A DNA stretch of 43,023 bases. Origin: Deltaproteobacteria bacterium. GTDB lineage: Bacteria; Myxococcota_A; Polyangia; Haliangiales; Haliangiaceae. Of this stretch, positions 1-24,166 are shown one piece after another (position 1 is the stretch's first letter; every line of letters begins with the position of its first letter). Position numbers and translations under genes: made by a program. The notes under the pieces were generated by a model, which made no database searches, had not been told where the DNA came from, and saw nothing but the letters and a program-made list of their open reading frames with translations. Location: the NCBI GenBank assembly GCA_031385555.1, contig JANNBP010000285.1, positions 1 through 43,023 of the forward strand, given 5' to 3'.

Positions 1-942
1 AACCTCGATCTCCTCCACCCGTTCGACACCACCCAGGACGAGAACACGGGTGAGTTCACCGCCGTGTCGGTCAGCGTCGGCGGCACCGGCCTCGACGCGT
101 TCGTCACCGACGTGACCACGAGCGAGATCACGCTCCAGGCAACGGCGGACATCGACGCGACCACGGGTCCGTTGACGATCACCTCCGGCACGGACGTCTC
201 GCCTGCCGGCAATCTCGACGTGGCCGCGCGCACCGCGATCCCGCTGGTGCTCGGCACCCCCGCAACCGCGACGCTCGACAACTCGGCGCTCTATGAAGTC
301 GACCTCGCCACAGCGCAGTTGCTCTCGCTCTCGGTTACCTCCGCGGATGAGAACGCAGACGTCGCGTACACGCTCCTTCCGGCCAGCGGCAAGTGGGCCG
401 ATGTGACGTCGGGCTTCTCGTCGGCGGATAACCTCGTGACCGCCCCTGGTGACAAGTTCTATCTGTCGGTCCTCGATCTCGGCTTGCTCAGTGGCTACAG
501 CTACACGATCAGCGCTGACGGTCTAGCCCTGCCCGCGAATGCAACGGCGGAAGTCGAGCCGAACGAGACGTCGGCGGCGGCCACCGCCGGTACCGGTGGC
601 GTCGTTCACTTCACCGGTGCGCTCGCCAACGATGCGGACGTCGACTTCTACAAGGTGACCGTGACGAATGTTCAGACGATCCGCGTGGTCACCACGGCCG
701 GCGACGGAGCCACCGACACGCAGATCTCGATCTTCAACCCGAACGGCACCACGCTGACCAAGGACGCCAACGGTGACGACATCGACGGCTTCGACGTTGG
801 CGTCGGCGACGACGTGACCACGGATACGCTGACGCCGGGTACTTACTTCATCAAGATCGAGGCGTCGGCGTTCGCGGTGTTCTTCGGCTATGCGCCGGCG
901 AACGATCCGTACGACGCCATCGTCATCGTCGAAACACCCTGA
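1..942 (+). CDS. Secreted repetitive protein with a C-terminal pre-peptidase (PPC)-like domain. It is 5'-truncated by the window edge.
   Basis: The frame is open from nt 1, before the first ATG at 64. The C-terminal ~110 aa (DVDFYKVTVTNVQTIRV...GTYFIKIEASAF) resembles the bacterial PPC beta-sandwich domain. GC3 is high. Stop at 942. Confidence 0.5.
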   Translation, partial: NLDLLHPFDTTQDENTGEFTAVSVSVGGTGLDAFVTDVTTSEITLQATADIDATTGPLTITSGTDVSPAGNLDVAARTAIPLVLGTPATATLDNSALYEVDLATAQLLSLSVTSADENADVAYTLLPASGKWADVTSGFSSADNLVTAPGDKFYLSVLDLGLLSGYSYTISADGLALPANATAEVEPNETSAAATAGTGGVVHFTGALANDADVDFYKVTVTNVQTIRVVTTAGDGATDTQISIFNPNGTTLTKDANGDDIDGFDVGVGDDVTTDTLTPGTYFIKIEASAFAVFFGYAPANDPYDAIVIVETP

Positions 943-14493: not shown

Positions 14494-15156
14494 ATGTTCG
14501 CCGAGCTCCTGCACCTCTGTCGCAACGCTCCCGGCGCCCTCAAGCTCAAGCGCGAGCTCCCGCAGGACGAGCTCTACGCCGAGCTGATCGGTCGCGCCGA
14601 TCGGGCCGGGCTCGCGGATCGCCGTCGTGCGCTGGTCGCCGACCTATGCGGTCGCGTGGTCGAGATCGGCTGCGGCACCGGCGCGATGTTTCCCTATTAC
14701 GAGGACGCGGACGTGCTCGGCATCGAGCCCGATCCGGCGTTCGCCGCGAAAGCGCGGGCCGCGGCCACCGGCCGGATCGAGGTTCGCGAGGGCAGCGGCG
14801 AGGCGCTCCCGATCGAGGCGGGAGCGATGGACGCCGCCGTGCTCGCGCTCGTCCTGTGTTCCGTGCCCGATGACGACGCGATCTGTCGCGAGGTCGCGCG
14901 CGTCGTCAAGCCGGGCGGCGCCGTGCGCTTGATCGAGCACGTGCGCAGCGAGAAGCGTGTCGCCGGCGCCCTGATGAGAGCCGTCGATCCGTTGTGGTGC
15001 TGGATCAATGGACAGGGCTGTCATCTCGATCGCGATCCGGTGCCGGCGCTCGAGCGGGCGGGGCTCCGGATCGAATCGATCGACGCGTTTCAGATCTGGA
15101 GCGCGGGCATCCCCGCGTTCCCGATGCGTGCGATCCGCGCGCGTCGGTACGGTTAG
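14494..15156 (+). CDS. Class I SAM-dependent methyltransferase
   Basis: Motif I is VVEIGCGTGAMF. An acidic post-I region and motif II/III are also present (AVLALVLCSV, VVKPGGAVRLIEH). An alternative start at 14476 is possible. Confidence 0.75.
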   Translation: MFAELLHLCRNAPGALKLKRELPQDELYAELIGRADRAGLADRRRALVADLCGRVVEIGCGTGAMFPYYEDADVLGIEPDPAFAAKARAAATGRIEVREGSGEALPIEAGAMDAAVLALVLCSVPDDDAICREVARVVKPGGAVRLIEHVRSEKRVAGALMRAVDPLWCWINGQGCHLDRDPVPALERAGLRIESIDAFQIWSAGIPAFPMRAIRARRYG

Positions 15157-15544
15157 CGGACAGCTCTCACACCGTGGGTTGCGTCGGCACTTCGCCGCAG
15201 AGGCGAAACTGGGCGGGAGCAAATCGCGATGTGACGAGCTGGCGCAGCCTGCACGATTGCCGGGAACACGACAGCACTTGCTGCTGCGTGTCGCGAATGA
15301 CAGCTGCTCTCTACTGATGGTTCGTCAGCATCGACCGAAACCGGCGCGCGCCTCCTACATCGACACCCGAGCACAACACACCGACCGACCAGATTTGTGC
15401 TCGCGCTTACGAGTGATCGAACGCACCGAAGCCAACCGTTCACGGTCTACACGTAGGCTCGCCCTTACTGACACAGCGTCAACAAGGAATTGCGCGTGGT
15501 GTGCAACGCACGCTGGCACCCGCGGTGAACGAGCAACGTTCGCC

Positions 15545-17779
15545 ATGCGCACGCTCAAGGGTTTCCTTTTGATCTCGATCGCAGCGAGTTGTCAGCAAGG
15601 GGCGCCGGGTGGAGGGGAGAGTAAAGACGACCGGAGCGATCTCTCGGATGTGGACACGGCGCTCTCGCAGCTGCCGGATGTAACCGTGGTCGAGACGCAT
15701 CTCGATGGCTTGCCGCGCTTCATCGTCGGCGAGCTCGCGAAGGTCGGGGACATGCAGACCGATGACATCGCGGCCGCCGATCAGGCGTTGCGAGGATCTC
15801 TCGGCCCGGTGCTCCCGGTGTTCCGGCTGACAGGCGGCGACCTGGTGCTGCGCAAGATCAACACCGACGACGAGGGCAACCGGCACTTCCGGTACGACCA
15901 GGTGGCAGGTGGCATGCCCGTGATCGGCGGCGAGCTCGTCGTCCACGTCGACGTCAAGGGCGCGATCAACGCGGTCAACGGCTCGGCCCGCGGCGATCTC
16001 GGCAACCTCGGCACCAGCCCGATCACCGAGACCACGGCGATGTCGACGATCGGCCACGACATCCGGTTCGCCGGTCTCACCGTCGCCAGCCCGCGGCGCG
16101 TGATGATCCAGACCGACGACGGCGTACTCCACGCGGCGTACGAGGCGATCGCCACGGGCTCGCGCAACGCCACGCCGGTGCGCGACAAGGTCTACGTCGA
16201 TGTCGACACCAACACGGTGATCGCGCAGTACCCGACGGTCCACACCGCGCGCAATCGCAGGATCTATAGCGCCAACAACGGGACCTCGTTGCCGGGCACG
16301 CTGAAGCGCACCGAGGGCCAGGCCGCGAGCGCCGACACCACGGTCAACGTGTCGTACGACGGAGCCGGCAATACCTACGACGCGTACGCGGCGTTCTGGA
16401 ACCGCGACTCCTATGACAACGCGGGCGCGACGCTCACGCAATCGGTGCACTACTCGACGAACTACTGCAACGCGTTCTGGAACGGGACGCAGATGGTGTT
16501 CGGCGACGGCGACTCCTCGCAGGGTTGCGGCTCGCTGGCGCTCAGCCTCGACGTCACCGCGCACGAGATGACGCACGCGGTCACCGAGAACGAATCCGGG
16601 CTGGTCTACAGCGGCGAGTCCGGCGGCATCAACGAGGCGCTGTCCGACATGTTCGGCGCGTTCGTCGAGGCGTGGACCGACGGCGGCAAGAACGGGACGC
16701 TCGCGAACAACGCCGGCGTCTGGCTGATCGGCGACGAGGTGCTGCCGCCGTATCTCCGCAACATGTGCGATCCGGCCGCCGACGGTGCCTCGAGGGACGT
16801 GTGGTCGAGCACGCTCGGCAACGTCGACGTCCACTACTCGTCGGGTCCGGCGAACCTGATGTTCTGTCTGCTCTCGAAGGGCGGCACGCATCCGCGCGGC
16901 AAGACCACGAACAACGTGCCCGCCATCGGCATGGAGAAGGCGATCCGCATCGTCTACAAGGCGCAGGTCGACTACCTGACCTCGACGTCGAAGTACGCGA
17001 ACTTCCGCACCGCGATGGAGCAGGCTGCGACGGCGCTCGGCGAAGGCGCGGCGACCAAGGATGCCGTCGGGTGCGCGTTCGCCGCGATCAGCGTCGGCAC
17101 CGCGCCGGCGAGCTGTGGTGGTACGCCTCCGCCCCCGTCGCCGACCGACGGCGTGCTGACGAATGGCGTCGCGCAGACCAACGTGTCGGGTGACACGGAT
17201 AGCCAGCGGTTCTGGAGCATCGATGTCCCGGCCGGCCAGACCCAGCTGACGATCAGCATCACCGGCGGCTCGGGCGATGCCGACCTCTACGTGCAGTCGG
17301 CGACCAAGCCGACGCTGACGGCCTACCAGTGCCGCCCGTACAAGAACGGCAACGTCGAGAGCTGCGTGTTCTCGCCGCCGACGCAGGGCAAGTACTACGT
17401 GATGCTGCACGCCTATAGTGCATACGCGGGCATCACGCTGACCGGCGCGTACAGCGCGAACACGCAGACCGGCGACCCGTACCTGACGAACGGCGCGGCG
17501 GTGACCGGCGTGACCGGCGCGGCGAACAGCGCGACGTACTGGCGGATCGCGACGCCTGCCGGCAAGACGCTGACCGTGACCACCTCGGGTGGCACCGGCG
17601 ACGCCGACCTCTACACCAAGTTCGGCACGCGCCCGACGACGACGAGCTACACCTGCCGCCCGTACAAGACGGGCAACGCCGAGACGTGCAGCCATCCGAG
17701 CACGAGCGCGGGTGACTACTACATCATGGTGCGCGGCTACAGCGCCTTCTCGGGGCTGCAGCTGATCGGCAGCTACTAG
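15545..17779 (+). CDS. Secreted M4 (thermolysin-like) zinc metalloprotease with two C-terminal PPC domains
   Basis: Signal peptide plus lipobox (LLISIAASC). An N-terminal FTP/PepSY-like propeptide is present. HEMTHAV ... GGINEALSD are the M4 zinc ligands. Two ~100-aa repeats (...GDADLYVQS...CRPYKNG...YYVMLHAYSAYAG... and ...GDADLYTKF...CRPYKTG...YYIMVRGYSAFSG...) are PPC domains. A 388-bp leader precedes the start. Confidence 0.9.
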   Translation: MRTLKGFLLISIAASCQQGAPGGGESKDDRSDLSDVDTALSQLPDVTVVETHLDGLPRFIVGELAKVGDMQTDDIAAADQALRGSLGPVLPVFRLTGGDLVLRKINTDDEGNRHFRYDQVAGGMPVIGGELVVHVDVKGAINAVNGSARGDLGNLGTSPITETTAMSTIGHDIRFAGLTVASPRRVMIQTDDGVLHAAYEAIATGSRNATPVRDKVYVDVDTNTVIAQYPTVHTARNRRIYSANNGTSLPGTLKRTEGQAASADTTVNVSYDGAGNTYDAYAAFWNRDSYDNAGATLTQSVHYSTNYCNAFWNGTQMVFGDGDSSQGCGSLALSLDVTAHEMTHAVTENESGLVYSGESGGINEALSDMFGAFVEAWTDGGKNGTLANNAGVWLIGDEVLPPYLRNMCDPAADGASRDVWSSTLGNVDVHYSSGPANLMFCLLSKGGTHPRGKTTNNVPAIGMEKAIRIVYKAQVDYLTSTSKYANFRTAMEQAATALGEGAATKDAVGCAFAAISVGTAPASCGGTPPPPSPTDGVLTNGVAQTNVSGDTDSQRFWSIDVPAGQTQLTISITGGSGDADLYVQSATKPTLTAYQCRPYKNGNVESCVFSPPTQGKYYVMLHAYSAYAGITLTGAYSANTQTGDPYLTNGAAVTGVTGAANSATYWRIATPAGKTLTVTTSGGTGDADLYTKFGTRPTTTSYTCRPYKTGNAETCSHPSTSAGDYYIMVRGYSAFSGLQLIGSY

Positions 17780-18209: not shown

Positions 18210-18216
18210 TGCCTAT

Positions 18217-18413
18217 CGGGGACAGGATCTACCCCTCCATCCTGTCGGGATTACACAGCTTCTGGACGCAAACGTAAAATCGCAATGTCCGGATCCCGGA
18301 CGACGAACCGATTTTACGTTCGTGTCTAAACCACGAATGATCTCGCCAGCCTGCGGGGGTAGATCCTGTCCCCGATCAACGAGCGGGGGAAATCCTGTCC
18401 CCGATCAACGAGC
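18217..18413. repeat. MITE-like or operator-like element. It has perfect 19-bp terminal inverted repeats, a nested inner palindrome, and a duplicated 22-mer.
   Basis: cggggacaggatctacccc (18217-18235) is the exact reverse complement of ggggtagatcctgtccccg (18356-18374). Inner IR: aacgtaaaatcg (18271-18282) pairs with cgattttacgtt (18309-18320) around the palindrome gtccggatcccggac. atcctgtccccgatcaacgagc occurs twice (18363-18384, 18392-18413). Local GC is ~50% against ~70% in the flanks. Confidence 0.5.
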
Positions 18414-18579
18414 TTGTGTAGTGCCGGCGTTGCGGAAGCCGGATCGGATCGCGGTGCTGTTGCTGCAGCTCTCGATCGAGAGCTCGCGCAGGAACACGAG
18501 CGCGCGCGCGAGGTTGTCGACGCTGCAGTTCGCGCCGAACAGACATGACAGGTTCGCGTCAGGTTTCGTAGGCTGCAGC

Positions 18580-19545
18580 ATGCGCGCCCTCGCACTCCTC
18601 GCGGTCACCGGTTGCGTGACCTCGATCCATCCGCGCGGCGGCACGCTCGAGACCACGCCGCCTCGGTTCGAGGCGAGCTCGCAGCTCGGCACGTTCTCGC
18701 TGAGCGAGGCGCTTTCGCAGGGCCACGTCGCGATCGTGTTCTATCGCGGCTTCTGGTGACCCTGGTGCAAGCACCAGCTCGGTGAGCTGGCCCGGGTCGC
18801 GAAGAGTGGAGCGTTTCGCCAGCGTGGGGTGACGCTGGTCGCCATCTCGCGCGATGACGTCGACGACTCGCGCAGCTTCGCGCGCGACTACGGCATCGAG
18901 TTCCCCTTGATCAGCGATCTCGACGGCGCGATCTCGAAGGCGCTCGTCGGGATCGACGACCAGGATCACTCGATCCCCGGCGTCGTCGTGATCCGGCGCG
19001 ACGGCGTGATCGCGTTCCGTCAGATCGCGAAATCGAAGGACGATCGGCTGACCGCGCGCGCGCTGCTCGAGGCGATCGATCGCAGCCTCGGCACCTCGGG
19101 CGAGCTCGCCCGGACGCGACATCCCGCGCTTGAACGGGCGCAGCTGCGCCTCGAGACCGGTGGAGGGCAGGTACGGATCGAGGATCGGTGGCAGGCGACC
19201 GGCGTCTCGAGGTTCGGCATCCTGATCCCGCTGCAGCGCTATCTGTTCGCAGGCGCCGCGATCGCGAGCGAGTACCGGGAGGCGCGGCTGTCGCTTCAGG
19301 GATCGATCGGCGTGCGCGTCCCGATCCTCGCCGACCTCGCCGCGATCCAGCTCTCCGGTGAGGCCGGGTTGCCGATCAGCGCACCGGGCGTCTACGCAGG
19401 CCTGAGGCTCGGGCTCTGGTTCGCGTGGACGCCGCGCTGGGCCGTGAACCTCGACGGCACCTTCGGCGTGCACGATGCCGGCCGCGTCGATGCGCTGCCA
19501 GGCTGGTCGGCATCACTGGGCGTCGCGCGCTTGCTCGGTCGCTAG
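18580..19545 (+). CDS. Candidate selenoprotein: a lipoprotein peroxiredoxin-like (AhpC/TSA / redoxin fold) protein with an in-frame UGA (Sec) at 18757-18759 and a C-terminal ~200-aa extension
   Basis: ORFs 18322-18759 and 18829-19545 are in the same frame, separated only by a TGA, with no other stop. Read-through gives AIVFYRGFW-U-PWCKHQLGEL...GVTLVAISRDD...FARDYGIEFPLISDLDG...VVVIRRDGVIAF. This is the Prx/redoxin FYRGxWCPxC-...-FPLLSD-...-DG pattern with U at the first (peroxidatic) Cys. The start at 18580 gives a signal peptide plus lipobox (MRALALLAVTGC). Confidence 0.6.
18760..18780 (+). other. Candidate bacterial SECIS-like stem-loop immediately 3' of the in-frame UGA
   Basis: ctggtg caag caccag (18762-18777) forms a perfect 6-7 bp stem with a G-containing apical loop, starting 3 nt after the TGA. 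A second hairpin, gcgaa-N11-ttcgc, lies at 18799-18819. Confidence 0.35.
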
Positions 19546-19578: not shown

Positions 19579-21519
19579 CTACTGCGAGATCACGCCGAAG
19601 CTGATCATCAGCGCGACCGCGATCCCCATCAGCGACTCGCCGGCGATCAGGCCCGACGCGATCGGCACCACGTGCGCACCCTGACCGCGGCGGTTCATCA
19701 GCTCGCCGATCGCGGCACCGAGGAACATCACGATCGCGTTGGCACCGGGGATCACCATGGCGATGCCGAGGCCGTTCGCCGAGGGGATGAACGCCTTGAC
19801 GTGCTTCGGCGCGTACTTCTCGATGATGGCGAGCACCGTGCCGATCACGAGGCCGACCACCATCGCCACCTGCACCGACGGCTGCAGCGAGCCGAGCCCG
19901 TTGACGAACGCGCGCGACACGCCCTCCCAGACCAGACACGACGGCGCCGGCCACTCGCTATCGCCGAGCACCGCAGGGTCGGGGATGATGATGCGGAACG
20001 CGGGCACGATGAACATCGCGCCGGCGATCACACCGAACAGCTGCGCGTAGACCTGGTGCCGCGGCTTCGCGCCGAGGAGCCAGCCGGTCTTCATCGTCGT
20101 CAGCAGATCGGCGGCGTGCAGGCCGATGCCACCGGTGACGTTCGCCGACATGATGTTGCCCGTCAGGTTGCCCGGCGTCAGGCCGCCGAACACCATCTGG
20201 GTGACGGGCCCGAGGGCCTTGGTCGGGGTGATGTCGGTCTCGCCGGTGACGCGCGAGGCGACGAAGCCCATCAGGATCGCGAGGAAGGCCGCGATCACGC
20301 CGGCCCACGGCGGGATCCCGAAGATCCACGCCATCAACAACACGACGATCGGCGTCAGGATCAAGAAGCCGACGGGGAACCACGAGCCGGGCACCTCGAC
20401 GTCCTCGATCGTGAGCTCGCCGGCGGGTTTCGCGACGGGCTTGCCGCGACTGAACAGCTTGCCGATGCCGGAGAACGAGCGACCGAGCGCGCGCCAGTCG
20501 AGGGCGAACGACGTCAACCCGGCACTGACGAGGATCGCGGCACCCGGCCACAACGTCCATTGCACGATCGTCTTGTAGTTCGTCTTCCCGTCGACGAGCG
20601 CCGCGACGTACCCCTGGTCGACGAGCCACGGTGCGAGGACCGCGTAGGTGATGATCGAGCCGAGCAGCAGGGACCAGCCGGTGCGGAAGCTCATCAGCGC
20701 GCCGGCGCCGAGCAGCACGACCTCGACGTTGATGTAGAGCGTCCACGACAGCATCGCGTAGCCGCCGAACTCGAACGGGAAGTCGATGTGCTCGGGGAGG
20801 ATCTTGAACACGCTGACGCCGGCCTTGATCCCGACGCCGACCAGGAACGCGATCCCGAGCGCCTTGAGGGCGCTCCTCGCCTTGCCGCCATCGCCGGCGT
20901 TGTGCATCGAGCGGATCGTCTCGGCGGTCGCCGTGCCGGTCGGGAACGCGAGCCCCTCCTGGTTGATCAGCTGGCGCTTGATCGGGATCGCGACGAACAC
21001 ACCCATCGCGGCGATCACCGCGAACCAGATCATCATCTGTCCGGTGCCCGGACCTTCTTGCGGGGCACGAGACAGCAGGAACGTGCCCTCGAGCGCGTCC
21101 CACAGATGCGGGACCAGCAGCGGCGGCGTCAGCACCATGAGTAGCGCGCCGTAGGCGGCCATGTTGCCACCCGCGGTCATGTACCCGGCGCCCGAGGCGA
21201 CCGTGGTGAGCGCGTTGTTCTCGAGCGCGCCGAGGGGCTTGGTCAGCTTCGCGGCCGAGGTCAGCTGGAACACCCCGAACGCGAGGATGCAGGCGGTCAG
21301 CGTGACTCCTAGGGACCATCCCGTCTTGAAGAACACGTAGAGGTTCGACAGGCACATCACCGCGCCGATCACGACGCCCCAGATCACCGCACGAACTGTG
21401 AGGTTCGCCTCGTTGGGCTGATAAACCTCGCGCAGCCAGCGAGCTTCCGGGTCTTCGGTCGCGGCCGTCGCCGGATCGACCTCGACTCGCAACGTCTTGG
21501 AGGTAGGCGTCCGGGCCAT
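19579..21519 (-). CDS. OPT-family oligopeptide transporter
   Basis: 646 aa with ~16 predicted TM segments. N-terminal OPT-family blocks (REVYQPNEANLTVRAVIWG, NLYVFFKTGWS) are present. High GC3. The two overlapping plus-strand ORFs are Arg/Asp-rich artefacts. Confidence 0.85.
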   Translation of the reverse strand: MARTPTSKTLRVEVDPATAATEDPEARWLREVYQPNEANLTVRAVIWGVVIGAVMCLSNLYVFFKTGWSLGVTLTACILAFGVFQLTSAAKLTKPLGALENNALTTVASGAGYMTAGGNMAAYGALLMVLTPPLLVPHLWDALEGTFLLSRAPQEGPGTGQMMIWFAVIAAMGVFVAIPIKRQLINQEGLAFPTGTATAETIRSMHNAGDGGKARSALKALGIAFLVGVGIKAGVSVFKILPEHIDFPFEFGGYAMLSWTLYINVEVVLLGAGALMSFRTGWSLLLGSIITYAVLAPWLVDQGYVAALVDGKTNYKTIVQWTLWPGAAILVSAGLTSFALDWRALGRSFSGIGKLFSRGKPVAKPAGELTIEDVEVPGSWFPVGFLILTPIVVLLMAWIFGIPPWAGVIAAFLAILMGFVASRVTGETDITPTKALGPVTQMVFGGLTPGNLTGNIMSANVTGGIGLHAADLLTTMKTGWLLGAKPRHQVYAQLFGVIAGAMFIVPAFRIIIPDPAVLGDSEWPAPSCLVWEGVSRAFVNGLGSLQPSVQVAMVVGLVIGTVLAIIEKYAPKHVKAFIPSANGLGIAMVIPGANAIVMFLGAAIGELMNRRGQGAHVVPIASGLIAGESLMGIAVALMISFGVISQ

Positions 21520-22261: not shown

Positions 22262-24166
22262 GTGGTCAGCAGCGGTCGACGTTGCGGGACCTGCGGGTCG
22301 CTGTCCGCGGGGTATAAGACCGGCGTGGTTCGCTCGCTGGTCTTCGCGCTGGTCTTCGCGCTACAGGTCGCCTGCGGGCATCCAGCGAGACCGGTCACGC
22401 CGTTGCCGCGCGATCCGAGCTCGTTCGCGGATCCCGCGAAGGTCGCGATCACGCACGTCTCGCTCGATCTCACCGTCGACTTCACCGCGCGCGTCCTCCA
22501 CGGCACCGCGAAGCTGACGGTCGCGCGCCACGATCCGAAGGCGCCGCTTCGCCTCGACACGCAGGATCTCGCGATCGAGTCCGCCGTCGACTGCGCCACG
22601 AGCAAGCCGCTCGCGTATGCGGTGGATCGGCGTCACCCGTTCCTCGGCAGCTCGCTCGTGATCCAGCAGCCGAGCGAGTGCGTCGCGATCGCGTATCGCA
22701 CCTCACCCGGCGCTCGCGCGTTGTTGTGGATGGAGCCCTCCGGGACGGCAGGCAAGCAAGCGCCGATGCTGTTCACGCAATCGCAGGCGATCCTCGCGCG
22801 CAGCTGGGTGCCGCTCCAGGACACGCCGTCGGTGCGCTTCACCTACGACGCGGTGCTCCACGTGCCCGCCAAGCTGTGGGCGGTGATGTCGGCGACCAAT
22901 CTCCAGCGCCCACCCGCCGACGGGGTGTGGCACTTCGAGATGAAGCAGCCGATCCCGTCGTACCTGATGGCCCTCGCCGTCGGAGACTTCGCGTTCAAGG
23001 CGATCGGGACGCGCACCGGGATCTACGCCGAGCCCTCGATCGTCGAGGCCGCCGCCGCGGAGTTCGGCGAGGTCGACGCGATGATGGCGACCGCCGAGAA
23101 GCTGTACGGCCCGTACGCGTGGGGCCGCTACGACATGCTCGTGTTGCCGCCGAGCTTTCCGTACGGCGGTATGGAGAATCCGCGCCTGACGTTCCTCACG
23201 CCGACGGCGATCGTCGGCGACCGAACGTTGGTGTCCTTGATCGCGCACGAGCTCGCGCACTCGTGGTCCGGCAACCTCGTCACCAACCGCACGTGGGCCG
23301 ACTTCTGGCTCAACGAAGGGTTCACCACCTACGTCGAGCGCCGGATCATGGAACAGCTGCGCGGGCGCGACTACGTCGACATGCAGTGGTCGATCGGTCA
23401 TCGCGAGCTGCTCAAGGCGTTCGCCGAGACCAAGCCCGCGGATACCAGGCTCGCCCTCGAGATCTCCCCCGATCGCGATCCCGAGGATGTCCCCGGCAAT
23501 GCCGCGTACGAGAAGGGCGCGCTGTTCCTGCGCACGCTCGAGGAGGCCTTCGGCCGTGACGTGTTCGACGCGTTCGTCCGTCGCCGCTTCGAGCGCCTCG
23601 CGTTTTCGTCGACCGACTCGGTCACCTTCGAGGCCGACGTTCGTCGCGAGCTGATCGACGCGCACCCCGGCACGTTCACCGTGCAGCGGCTCTCCCTATG
23701 GCTGCACGGGACGGGCTTGCCCGACGGGGCTGCACCGAGGTCGTCGCGCCGCGTCGCCGAGCTAGATGCGATCGCCCAGCGCTTCCTCGCCACCGGCGAG
23801 CTGTTCGAGACCACCGGCTGGAGCACGCTCGACTGGGTCGTGTTCCTGCGCGCCTTGCCCGCGACGATGGTGCTCGGTCGGCTGCAAGCGCTCGATGCGA
23901 AGTTCAGGCTGACCGCGCAGAGCAATCCCGAGGTCGCGATGAACTGGTTGCCGTTGATGGTGCGTGCCGATGGCAAGGAAGCGATCCCCGCGATCGAGGC
24001 CTACCTGACGACGATCGGTCGCCGCCGCAACCTCGGTCCGCTCTACAAAGCGCTCGTCGACAAGGGTGGCAGCTGGCTCGAGCTCGCGCGCGCCACGTTC
24101 GAGAAGGCCAAGCCGATGTATCACCCGACGGTGCGCGAAGACTTCACGCGCCTGCTCGCGCGCTAG
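22262..24166 (+). CDS. M1-family zinc aminopeptidase (LTA4 hydrolase/aminopeptidase-N-like), secreted lipoprotein
   Basis: The GxMEN exopeptidase motif is FPYGGMENPRLTF. The HExxH-x18-E motif is HELAHSWSGNLVTNRTWADFWLNEGFTTYVE. A lipobox-like N-terminus (FALQVACG) is present. The start is uncertain. Confidence 0.85.
   Translation: MVSSGRRCGTCGSLSAGYKTGVVRSLVFALVFALQVACGHPARPVTPLPRDPSSFADPAKVAITHVSLDLTVDFTARVLHGTAKLTVARHDPKAPLRLDTQDLAIESAVDCATSKPLAYAVDRRHPFLGSSLVIQQPSECVAIAYRTSPGARALLWMEPSGTAGKQAPMLFTQSQAILARSWVPLQDTPSVRFTYDAVLHVPAKLWAVMSATNLQRPPADGVWHFEMKQPIPSYLMALAVGDFAFKAIGTRTGIYAEPSIVEAAAAEFGEVDAMMATAEKLYGPYAWGRYDMLVLPPSFPYGGMENPRLTFLTPTAIVGDRTLVSLIAHELAHSWSGNLVTNRTWADFWLNEGFTTYVERRIMEQLRGRDYVDMQWSIGHRELLKAFAETKPADTRLALEISPDRDPEDVPGNAAYEKGALFLRTLEEAFGRDVFDAFVRRRFERLAFSSTDSVTFEADVRRELIDAHPGTFTVQRLSLWLHGTGLPDGAAPRSSRRVAELDAIAQRFLATGELFETTGWSTLDWVVFLRALPATMVLGRLQALDAKFRLTAQSNPEVAMNWLPLMVRADGKEAIPAIEAYLTTIGRRRNLGPLYKALVDKGGSWLELARATFEKAKPMYHPTVREDFTRLLAR

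Follow-up and report, generated by a model that had tools for sequence, protein, structure and literature searches.

Does the TGA at positions 18757–18759 of contig JANNBP010000285.1 end one protein, or does it encode selenocysteine (Sec) in the middle of a longer one? The 43,023-nucleotide (nt) stretch of this contig, from a deltaproteobacterium, that was analysed here (the window) contains two open reading frames (ORFs) in the same frame, 18322–18759 and 18829–19545, which the ORF listing separates by this single TGA (codon 60 of the gene described below). Our reading, to which we give a probability of about 0.82, is that 18580–19545 is one gene with a recoded UGA, specifying a Sec-containing thioredoxin-fold redox lipoprotein with a C-terminal outer-membrane barrel anchor. 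Judged from comparative sequence data, the TGA itself is almost certainly a genuine Sec codon, placed within the redox domain's active site. The gene, its unusual codon and the product annotated in its stead are these:

18580–19545, forward strand: proposed complete selenoprotein gene of 321 codons including Sec60, closed by a TAG stop at 19543–19545.
18757–18759, forward strand: TGA read here as selenocysteine (U60), with TGA in 60/60 loci and Cys or Ser in distant homologues.
18829–19545, forward strand: fragment annotated instead of the full gene, a 238-amino-acid (aa) 'redoxin domain-containing protein' starting from an internal GTG.

The translation of 18580–19545 runs MRALALLAVTGC...VAIVFYRGFW-(stop)-PWCKHQLGELAR...VAISRDD...FPLISDLDG...PGVVVIRRDGVIAFRQI...LLGR-(stop), with one internal stop codon. 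Around that codon it reads FYRGFW-(stop)-PWCKHQLGEL, and VVIRRDGVI occurs downstream. A preliminary description of this DNA had reported a same-frame ORF pair split by one TGA and quoted a set of redoxin motifs; the pair is seen in both the listing and the translation, and the motifs are all found in the latter. We place the start at the ATG at 18580 and not at the GTG at 18322, since orthologues carry stops right before the equivalent Met. In the gene frame, the G+C content of third codon positions (GC3) reaches 0.90 before the TGA and 0.88 after it; the remaining two frames upstream of the TGA give 0.63 and 0.58. With Cys put in place of the internal stop, the read-through protein matches the Pfam AhpC-TSA family (PF00578) across the TGA (residues 28–146, E = 3.8e-21, 75.7 bits where the cut-off is 26), bearing out the contiguous AhpC/TSA-type fold suggested earlier. 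The identical 966-nt gene, TGA included, is present in two more assemblies in public archives, one a scaffold in ENA and one from Logan, which disfavours a sequencing error at 18757–18759, a concern of the preliminary description; the window may itself derive from one of the two.

Both strands of the window were scanned for in-frame TGAs with coding-like flanks. There are four, and only 18757–18759 resembles real protein. The remaining three (24673, 25226 and 37823) give Cys/Arg-rich, low-complexity readings and were judged probable antisense-frame artefacts. Elsewhere in the window, TGA closes Pfam-supported ORFs for a kinase, a radical-SAM protein, a TonB-dependent receptor and a Major Vault Protein (MVP)-like protein; the code is thus not reassigned.

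Among 5.8 billion proteins searched by a word index there were 23 close homologues (42–95% identity), all of 186–244 aa and covering just the C-terminal 58–74% of the read-through protein. That every close homologue is short at the same place is the signature of gene callers halting at the TGA. The family members that we examined are misannotated time and again: MBA2544496.1 is an NCBI example of a shortened 'redoxin domain-containing protein', and at locus L067 gene calls split the gene into 112-aa (448–786) and 238-aa (856–1572) products. We fetched orthologue DNA by peptide patterns taken from well beyond the TGA on its downstream side, and retrieval is therefore unbiased for Sec versus Cys. 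This gave 19 loci from GTDB species genomes, all of them metagenome-assembled genomes (MAGs) labelled Haliangiales, Kofleriaceae, Myxococcales or Deltaproteobacteria, and 45 loci from metagenomes; a locus was counted where it was long enough to reach the motif.

All 60 motif-holding loci have TGA at the equivalent of codon 60, in 53 distinct 60-nt sequences around the codon, and none has TAA, TAG, TGC or TGT there. Protein identity in these loci ranges from 34% to 95%, with coding conserved on either side of the TGA. Upstream, the lipobox and FYRGxW are kept; downstream, so are the remaining fold and the barrel. The codon context in orthologues is FYRG[FHYTSAV]W-TGA-[PL]WC[KRLV]xQLGELA, after a conserved lipoprotein-type N terminus. 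The possibility that orthologues would carry a genuine stop with nothing conserved beyond it, which had been raised at the outset, is not borne out.

More distant relatives reveal what stands in place of Sec. A full search with a hidden Markov model (HMM) of 1.84 billion cluster representatives yielded 437 relatives at E ≤ 1e-3, 53 of these at E ≤ 1e-30, which fall into the following sets:

Most HMM matches: fragments of 180–260 aa, some starting MWCKHQLGEL just past U; residue presumed Sec (TGA column not covered).
P0063 (WCPWC), P0083 (WCPWC) and P0079 (WCPSC), full-length relatives with lipobox, redoxin and barrel: Cys at the TGA column.
P0067 (WSPWC), a full-length relative of the same lipobox, redoxin and barrel architecture: Ser at the TGA column.
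P0106 and P0111, lipoproteins without a barrel: Cys at the TGA column.
P0024–P0030, cytoplasmic FYRGxWCPxC proteins: Cys at the TGA column.

Replacement of the TGA by Cys, for which the preliminary description had proposed a check, is therefore found in three kinds of more distant homologue, and the DNA of P0083 has TGC at the position of the TGA. Of the 53 family representatives that reach E ≤ 1e-30, only about 4 are full-length Cys or Ser forms. In alignment A3, the redox motif has an invariant second Cys. The Ser form (P0067, 362 aa) is an SxxC variant, in which the N-terminal nucleophile would be missing.

Directly after the codon lies a small RNA element, a candidate bacterial selenocysteine insertion sequence (SECIS):

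18774–18790, forward strand: candidate bacterial SECIS hairpin, stem 18774–18780/18784–18790 (CCAGCUC/GAGCUGG), loop GGU at 18781–18783.

The hairpin has a 7-base-pair stem and a GGY loop and begins 14 nt past the UGA, inside the coding sequence. Its UGA-to-loop distance is 21 nt, and the range used by bSECISearch is 16–37 nt. All seven stem pairs form in 53/53 distinct sequences, so that a conserved SECIS-like hairpin does occupy the interval (18757–18830) in which one had been suggested. The sole stem change is a compensatory one, from a G–C to an A–U pair, in a single clade (L018/L019). Pairing is 99.6% in register and drops to between 17% and 54% when the 3′ partners are slid by 1–3 columns. 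Across 50 distinct genes, synonymous sites of the stem have an entropy of 0–0.33 bit, versus about 0.9 bit typical for equally conserved residues; conserved Leu columns elsewhere in the gene have 0.58–1.53 bit. His is CAC in 47/47 genes, Leu is CTC in 50/50 and Glu is GAG in 50/50, and the synonymous changes at Gln and Leu in the stem are the compensating pair itself. The only freely varying base of the hairpin is the third loop nucleotide (T:C 27:26 over 53 sequences). The isolated hairpin has an energy of −11.1 kcal/mol. One Cys-form gene (L065) has GAGAUCG as its 3′ arm and no longer forms the hairpin. Bacterial SECIS elements are described as stem-loops that follow the UGA directly and have a small, G-containing apical loop (PMC1088965), and the hairpin at 18774–18790 fits this pattern.

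A possible extra lower helix (alignment A2, columns 20–21/47–48) pairs in 98% of cells with no compensatory change, and we do not claim it. Just before the UGA, at 18742–18747, Arg is CGC in 50/50 genes (other conserved Arg columns have 0.67–1.31 bit) and Tyr is the AT-ending TAT in 44/50, though the GC3 of the gene is about 0.9. RNA-level constraint may act on the context upstream of the UGA as well.

SelB and tRNA-Sec, recruited by the in-gene hairpin with its 7-bp stem and GGY loop 14 nt downstream, would recode the UGA at codon 60 to Sec. The recoding mechanism is textbook; its actual use at UGA60 is what we infer from the sequence patterns. Published criteria for new bacterial selenoproteins ask for an in-frame TGA conserved in at least two sequences, at least two Cys homologues and a downstream stem-loop (PMC1088965), and the gene at 18580–19545 has all three. 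The same source treats the Sec/Cys pattern as a hallmark of selenoproteins. Supplementary Table S2 of Peng et al. 2016 (PMC5029168) gives selenoprotein gene counts of 3 for Haliangium ochraceum, 6 for Plesiocystis pacifica, 2–3 for Myxococcus and 10–12 for Anaeromyxobacter; from these counts for cultured relatives, the Sec trait exists in Myxococcota. Our literature search on selenoproteins of Myxococcota or Haliangium found nothing specific beyond that table. With its conserved TGA, Cys homologues and hairpin, the locus upholds the early proposal of a selenoprotein gene of the AhpC/TSA redoxin type.

What kind of redox enzyme would this be? The domain and its motif are placed as follows:

18661–19017, forward strand: thioredoxin-fold (AhpC/TSA, 'Prx-like', for peroxiredoxin-like) redox domain, residues 28–146 by Pfam, the fold running to about residue 170.
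18757–18768, forward strand: redox motif U60-P-W-C63 (UxxC), U aligned with the first Cys of WCPFC/WCPHC (MPT53, ResA).

PF08534 also matches the redox domain (E = 1e-14). The best sequence matches in the PDB are MPT53/DsbE, ResA and TlpA-like proteins, with peroxiredoxins next. Sec aligns with the first, nucleophilic Cys of W-C-P-x-C in MPT53 (1lu4) and ResA (3c71), and the Pro in HSIPGVVVI with the MPT53 Pro, in a region where alignments are weak. The preliminary description had put the TGA at the first Cys of W-C-P-x-C, giving UxxC, and this placement stands. It had also called this residue the peroxidatic/resolving Cys, and a peroxidatic position does not hold: with FYRGFWUPWC set against FYPKAMTPGC of Escherichia coli BCP, Sec falls at the Thr position of PxxxTxxC and C63 at the peroxidatic position. 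On these alignments, Sec is at the N-terminal position of a thioredoxin-type UxxC motif, not at the peroxidatic position. The Prx-like family is set by domain (PF00578) plus a UxxC/UxxU motif (PMC9312934, PMC13188914). By this domain-plus-motif definition, the sequence of 18580–19545 makes it a Prx-like thiol:disulfide oxidoreductase selenoprotein and not a canonical Sec-peroxiredoxin.

The best-surviving alternative concerns this chemistry. In a true Sec-peroxiredoxin, here a periplasmic selenoperoxidase, Sec would attack peroxide to give a selenenic acid, with Cys63 resolving. AhpC-TSA is the best Pfam match, and the redox domain of P0063 (AlphaFold predicted local distance difference test, pLDDT, >90) has BCP, AhpE and PrxQ as its top Foldseek matches, with ResA equally close (E of about 1e-9 to 1e-8). 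Peroxide reduction by a UxxC centre, in the manner of glutathione peroxidase, is conceivable in principle, and an ScsB-fed envelope peroxiredoxin is documented (PMC3322552). The canonical PxxxTxxC/U motif is missing from the window protein, however: its Pro is replaced by Arg (R-G-F-W-U-P-W-C), its Thr by Sec, and Sec comes three residues before the peroxidatic position. In alignments that are weak here, no Arg is aligned with the catalytic Arg of BCP or PRDX2, and the stretch reads HSIPG with its thioredoxin-type Pro. No NCBIfam model exceeds its cut-off for the read-through protein. The SelL-related model (NF040769) comes best with 35.3 bits against 120, ahead of ResA (28.8 against 170), PrxQ (27.6 against 260), DsbE (26.8 against 123.15) and BCP (22.3 against 140), and PrxU scores 16.7 against 270. 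We consider a dedicated peroxidase, and with it a true Sec-peroxiredoxin, unlikely, and rather favour chemistry of the thiol-disulfide type; with Sec outside the peroxidatic position, 'Sec-peroxidase' is not the best-supported label.

In the mechanism that we propose, U60 would serve as the exposed attacking nucleophile on an oxidised substrate, either an envelope-protein disulfide or sulfenate, or a peroxide. Cys63 would resolve the intermediate to an intramolecular selenenylsulfide, and a periplasmic reductant fed by a membrane electron transporter of the DsbD/CcdA/ScsB type would re-reduce the active site. Reduction of envelope TlpA-like and Prx-like proteins by DsbD/ScsB-type transporters is documented (PMC3322552), and by analogy U60/Cys63 may be recycled by a DsbD/ScsB/CcdA-fed reductant. 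Both the direction of electron flow and the substrate are presumptive in this scheme.

The redox domain is flanked by two segments that would determine where it works:

18580–18615, forward strand: lipoprotein signal peptide MRALALLAVTGC, with lipobox V-T-G-C at 18604–18615 and Cys12 as the predicted lipidated residue.
19141–19542, forward strand: C-terminal 8-stranded β-barrel, residues ~188–321, a predicted outer-membrane anchor.

A lipobox-like xx[GASTN]C pattern lies 44–54 residues before Sec in 50 of 51 distinct orthologue N termini, and the 51st has AMGC. Residue +2 of the lipobox Cys is V, G, I, S, L or A in orthologues, never D or K. Going by consensus, this N-terminal pattern is probably a lipobox. 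The lipoprotein signal with lipobox named in the preliminary description is therefore seen in the window and in its orthologues, and the 'unusual ~200-aa C-terminal extension' also exists, at a shorter length of about 170 aa past the thioredoxin fold.

AlphaFold models the C-terminal 238 aa of the window protein, with 23 homologues (alignment A1), as eight long antiparallel strands (~188–318, pLDDT ~90). The model of full-length P0063 has a signal helix followed by a confidently predicted thioredoxin fold and, again, an 8-stranded barrel (pLDDT 85.6, predicted template modelling score 0.81). Against the PDB, Foldseek matches the barrel to NspA, a designed transmembrane barrel, the OmpA transmembrane domain, OmpX, Ail and OprF-N, with a probability of 1.00 each. 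In most strands, a hydrophobic face alternates with a polar or small face, and more distant relatives have the C-terminal Phe that is classical for outer-membrane proteins (P0083 ..TWAF, P0067 ..ALLF, P0073 ..GFLF, P0078 ..VRLF). The extension is thus predicted to be an 8-stranded outer-membrane barrel akin to OmpA, OmpX and NspA. Even-stranded outer-membrane barrels have both termini on the periplasmic side, so the redox domain is predicted to hang beneath the outer membrane. With this presumed location and topology, the protein would be exported via its lipoprotein signal peptide and acylated on Cys12; the barrel would then insert in the outer membrane, leaving the redox domain in the periplasm, tethered by lipid and barrel.

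Several results weigh against a barrel-anchored selenoprotein. Neither tRNA-Sec (ARAGORN) nor selA, selB or selD is present anywhere in the window (43 kb) or among 30 related loci; by Pfam, the 20 ORFs of the window include no SelA, SelB, SelD, DsbD or CcdA. The local fold of 18757–18830 (74 nt) is no stabler than shuffles (z = 0.10); support for the hairpin comes from sequence comparison and not from folding energy. Rfam gives no match in a gathering-threshold scan of the whole window or in an E ≤ 10 scan of 18730–18850, a null that is uninformative because bacterial SECIS elements are short and lineage-specific. Covariation in the hairpin amounts to one event in one clade, and some Cys forms likewise keep the hairpin-encoded QLGEL, which puts part of its conservation at the protein level. 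The redox domain is as close to the BCP/AhpE peroxiredoxins as to ResA and so may act on either class of substrate. At its C terminus (...ARLLGR), the window protein has no aromatic β-signal, and it matches no Pfam outer-membrane barrel family at E ≤ 0.1. Finally, no gene neighbourhood is conserved across the family, neighbours being shared just in close relatives; the gene therefore appears to stand alone and offers no operon or partner clue.

Two of these points would suit a second alternative, in which a near-cognate or suppressor tRNA, say, reads through the UGA or recodes it to Trp, Cys, Gly or another non-Sec residue and the hairpin acts only to stimulate readthrough: no Sec machinery is seen in the window or in the 30 related loci, and the hairpin is without a match to a curated SECIS family. 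Yet the codon sits exactly at the redox-active Cys of its homologues, in the Sec/Cys pattern that is the hallmark of selenoproteins (PMC1088965), and the hairpin is like bacterial SECIS elements in its small apical loop with G and in its position right behind the UGA (PMC1088965). TGA stops other genes of the window, which speaks against code reassignment, and the lineage has the Sec trait, as far as Supplementary Table S2 of PMC5029168 covers it. We regard non-Sec readthrough as very improbable. A real stop (in a pseudogene, through a sequencing error, or between two genes for a 59-aa lipopeptide and a 238-aa protein) is what gene callers annotate throughout and would agree with the lack of Sec genes in the window and the 30 related loci, but is more improbable still, given a TGA fixed in 60/60 loci down to 34% protein identity, purifying selection on both halves where decay should have brought TAA, TAG or frameshifts, an identical sequence in other assemblies, a split that would cut the thioredoxin fold through its active-site motif, and predicted downstream starts that vary among orthologues.

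Read as a Sec-containing redox lipoprotein with a barrel anchor, the window protein has likenesses to several known systems. Selenoproteins of the Prx-like class with a UxxC motif have been known since 2004–2005. With these (type example WP_010940744.1; 'Prx-like protein' or 'Prx-like 1') it has in common PF00578 and UxxC rather than TxxU, the domain and motif by which it is assigned, as well as Cys homologues and a SECIS-like hairpin right after the UGA; the window clade adds a lipoprotein signal and, at the C terminus, an 8-stranded barrel of the outer-membrane type. Neither is among the fusions known from Prx-like selenoproteins, which are to PP2C, Secretin_N-like and unknown Cys-rich domains (PMC2398784). 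The TlpA/ResA/DsbE(CcmG)/MPT53 group, the best matches among solved structures by sequence, shares W-C-P-x-C at the start of helix 1, the Pro loop and the envelope location, whereas the window protein has Sec for Cys, a barrel anchor instead of an inner-membrane helix, sub-cut-off NCBIfam scores and no cytochrome-c-biogenesis genes around it.

PrxU (TxxU) and BCP/PrxQ/AhpE share the fold (Foldseek ~1e-9) and the Pfam family; the window protein differs in lacking PxxxTxxU, in carrying Sec at the Thr position and in scoring far below the PrxU cut-off (16.7 bits versus 270). SelL/PRX_like2 (NF040769), the best NCBIfam match, has an FYRGxWCPxC-type motif in common with the nearest cytoplasmic Cys homologues (P0024–P0030). 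Unlike SelL, the window protein has UxxC and not UxxU, is predicted to be exported and barrel-fused, and stays at 35.3 bits against a cut-off of 120. The OmpA N-domain, OmpX, Ail, NspA and OprF-N have eight antiparallel strands with alternating hydrophobic faces, as predicted for the window barrel, which in turn is without a detectable sequence family match and without a terminal aromatic. The soluble domain of OmpA is C-terminal and binds peptidoglycan, whereas that of the window protein is N-terminal and a redox enzyme. The lone outer-membrane barrel selenoprotein in a 2026 review is an unrelated protein of the MtrB/PioB type.

Upstream of the gene lie an M4 peptidase gene and a small ORF, and downstream a convergent OPT transporter gene. 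Further features of the window are as follows:

64–942, forward strand: PPC-domain ORF at the start of the window.
15008–17779, forward strand: secreted thermolysin-type M4 metallopeptidase with an FTP propeptide and two PPC domains, directly upstream.
19579–21519, reverse strand: OPT oligopeptide transporter, by Pfam.
22262–24166, forward strand: M1 aminopeptidase, by Pfam.
25773–26516, reverse strand: MshEN-domain ORF, adjoining the vault-like ORF.
26542–28983, reverse strand: MVP-like ORF of 813 aa (MVP_shoulder E = 2.1e-26, Vault_3 4.6e-7).

Taken together, the M4, PPC, OPT and M1 genes make the region rich in extracellular proteolysis and peptide-uptake functions. The ORF at 26542–28983 matches eukaryotic MVP domains, and a vault-protein homologue is uncommon in bacteria. 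The intergenic segment 18215–18413, upstream of the gene, holds an imperfect inverted repeat (arms 18215–18282/18309–18376, 68 nt, 75% complementary, 26 nt apart) and a 29-nt tandem duplication (18356–18384/18385–18413, 93% identical). The 15-mer ATCCTGTCCCCGATC occurs in three copies in 18215–18413 and once elsewhere with two mismatches, against a chance expectation of 0.09. This repeat region could be an element resembling a miniature inverted-repeat transposable element or a repetitive extragenic palindrome, or a regulatory structure.

Recoding and the UxxC Prx-like class are already known, and the finding extends known biology and overturns none of it. What is new is the lipoprotein–redoxin–barrel architecture, the near-exclusive use of Sec in a clade of uncultured Myxococcota and the way in which the public copies found are consistently misannotated. 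Every public copy found is a shortened fragment in annotation, so selenoproteome surveys cannot see the family, and its architecture has gone unnoticed. The selenoprotein reviews and envelope-redox papers searched describe no thioredoxin-fold redox domain that is fused to a barrel of the outer membrane. At slightly less than even odds, no family of outer-membrane-embedded selenoenzymes with a thioredoxin fold has been recognised before this one, with the UxxC domain tethered at both ends on the periplasmic face. Sec is nearly fixed over Cys across dozens of diverged Myxococcota MAGs, which suggests selection for selenium chemistry at this site, and the redoxin–barrel architecture would put a highly reactive selenol at the outer membrane. 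If true, this would add a previously invisible selenoprotein to lineages credited with just 2–6, and would mean an unexplored redox activity at the outer membrane, such as the repair of oxidised outer-membrane proteins or lipids.

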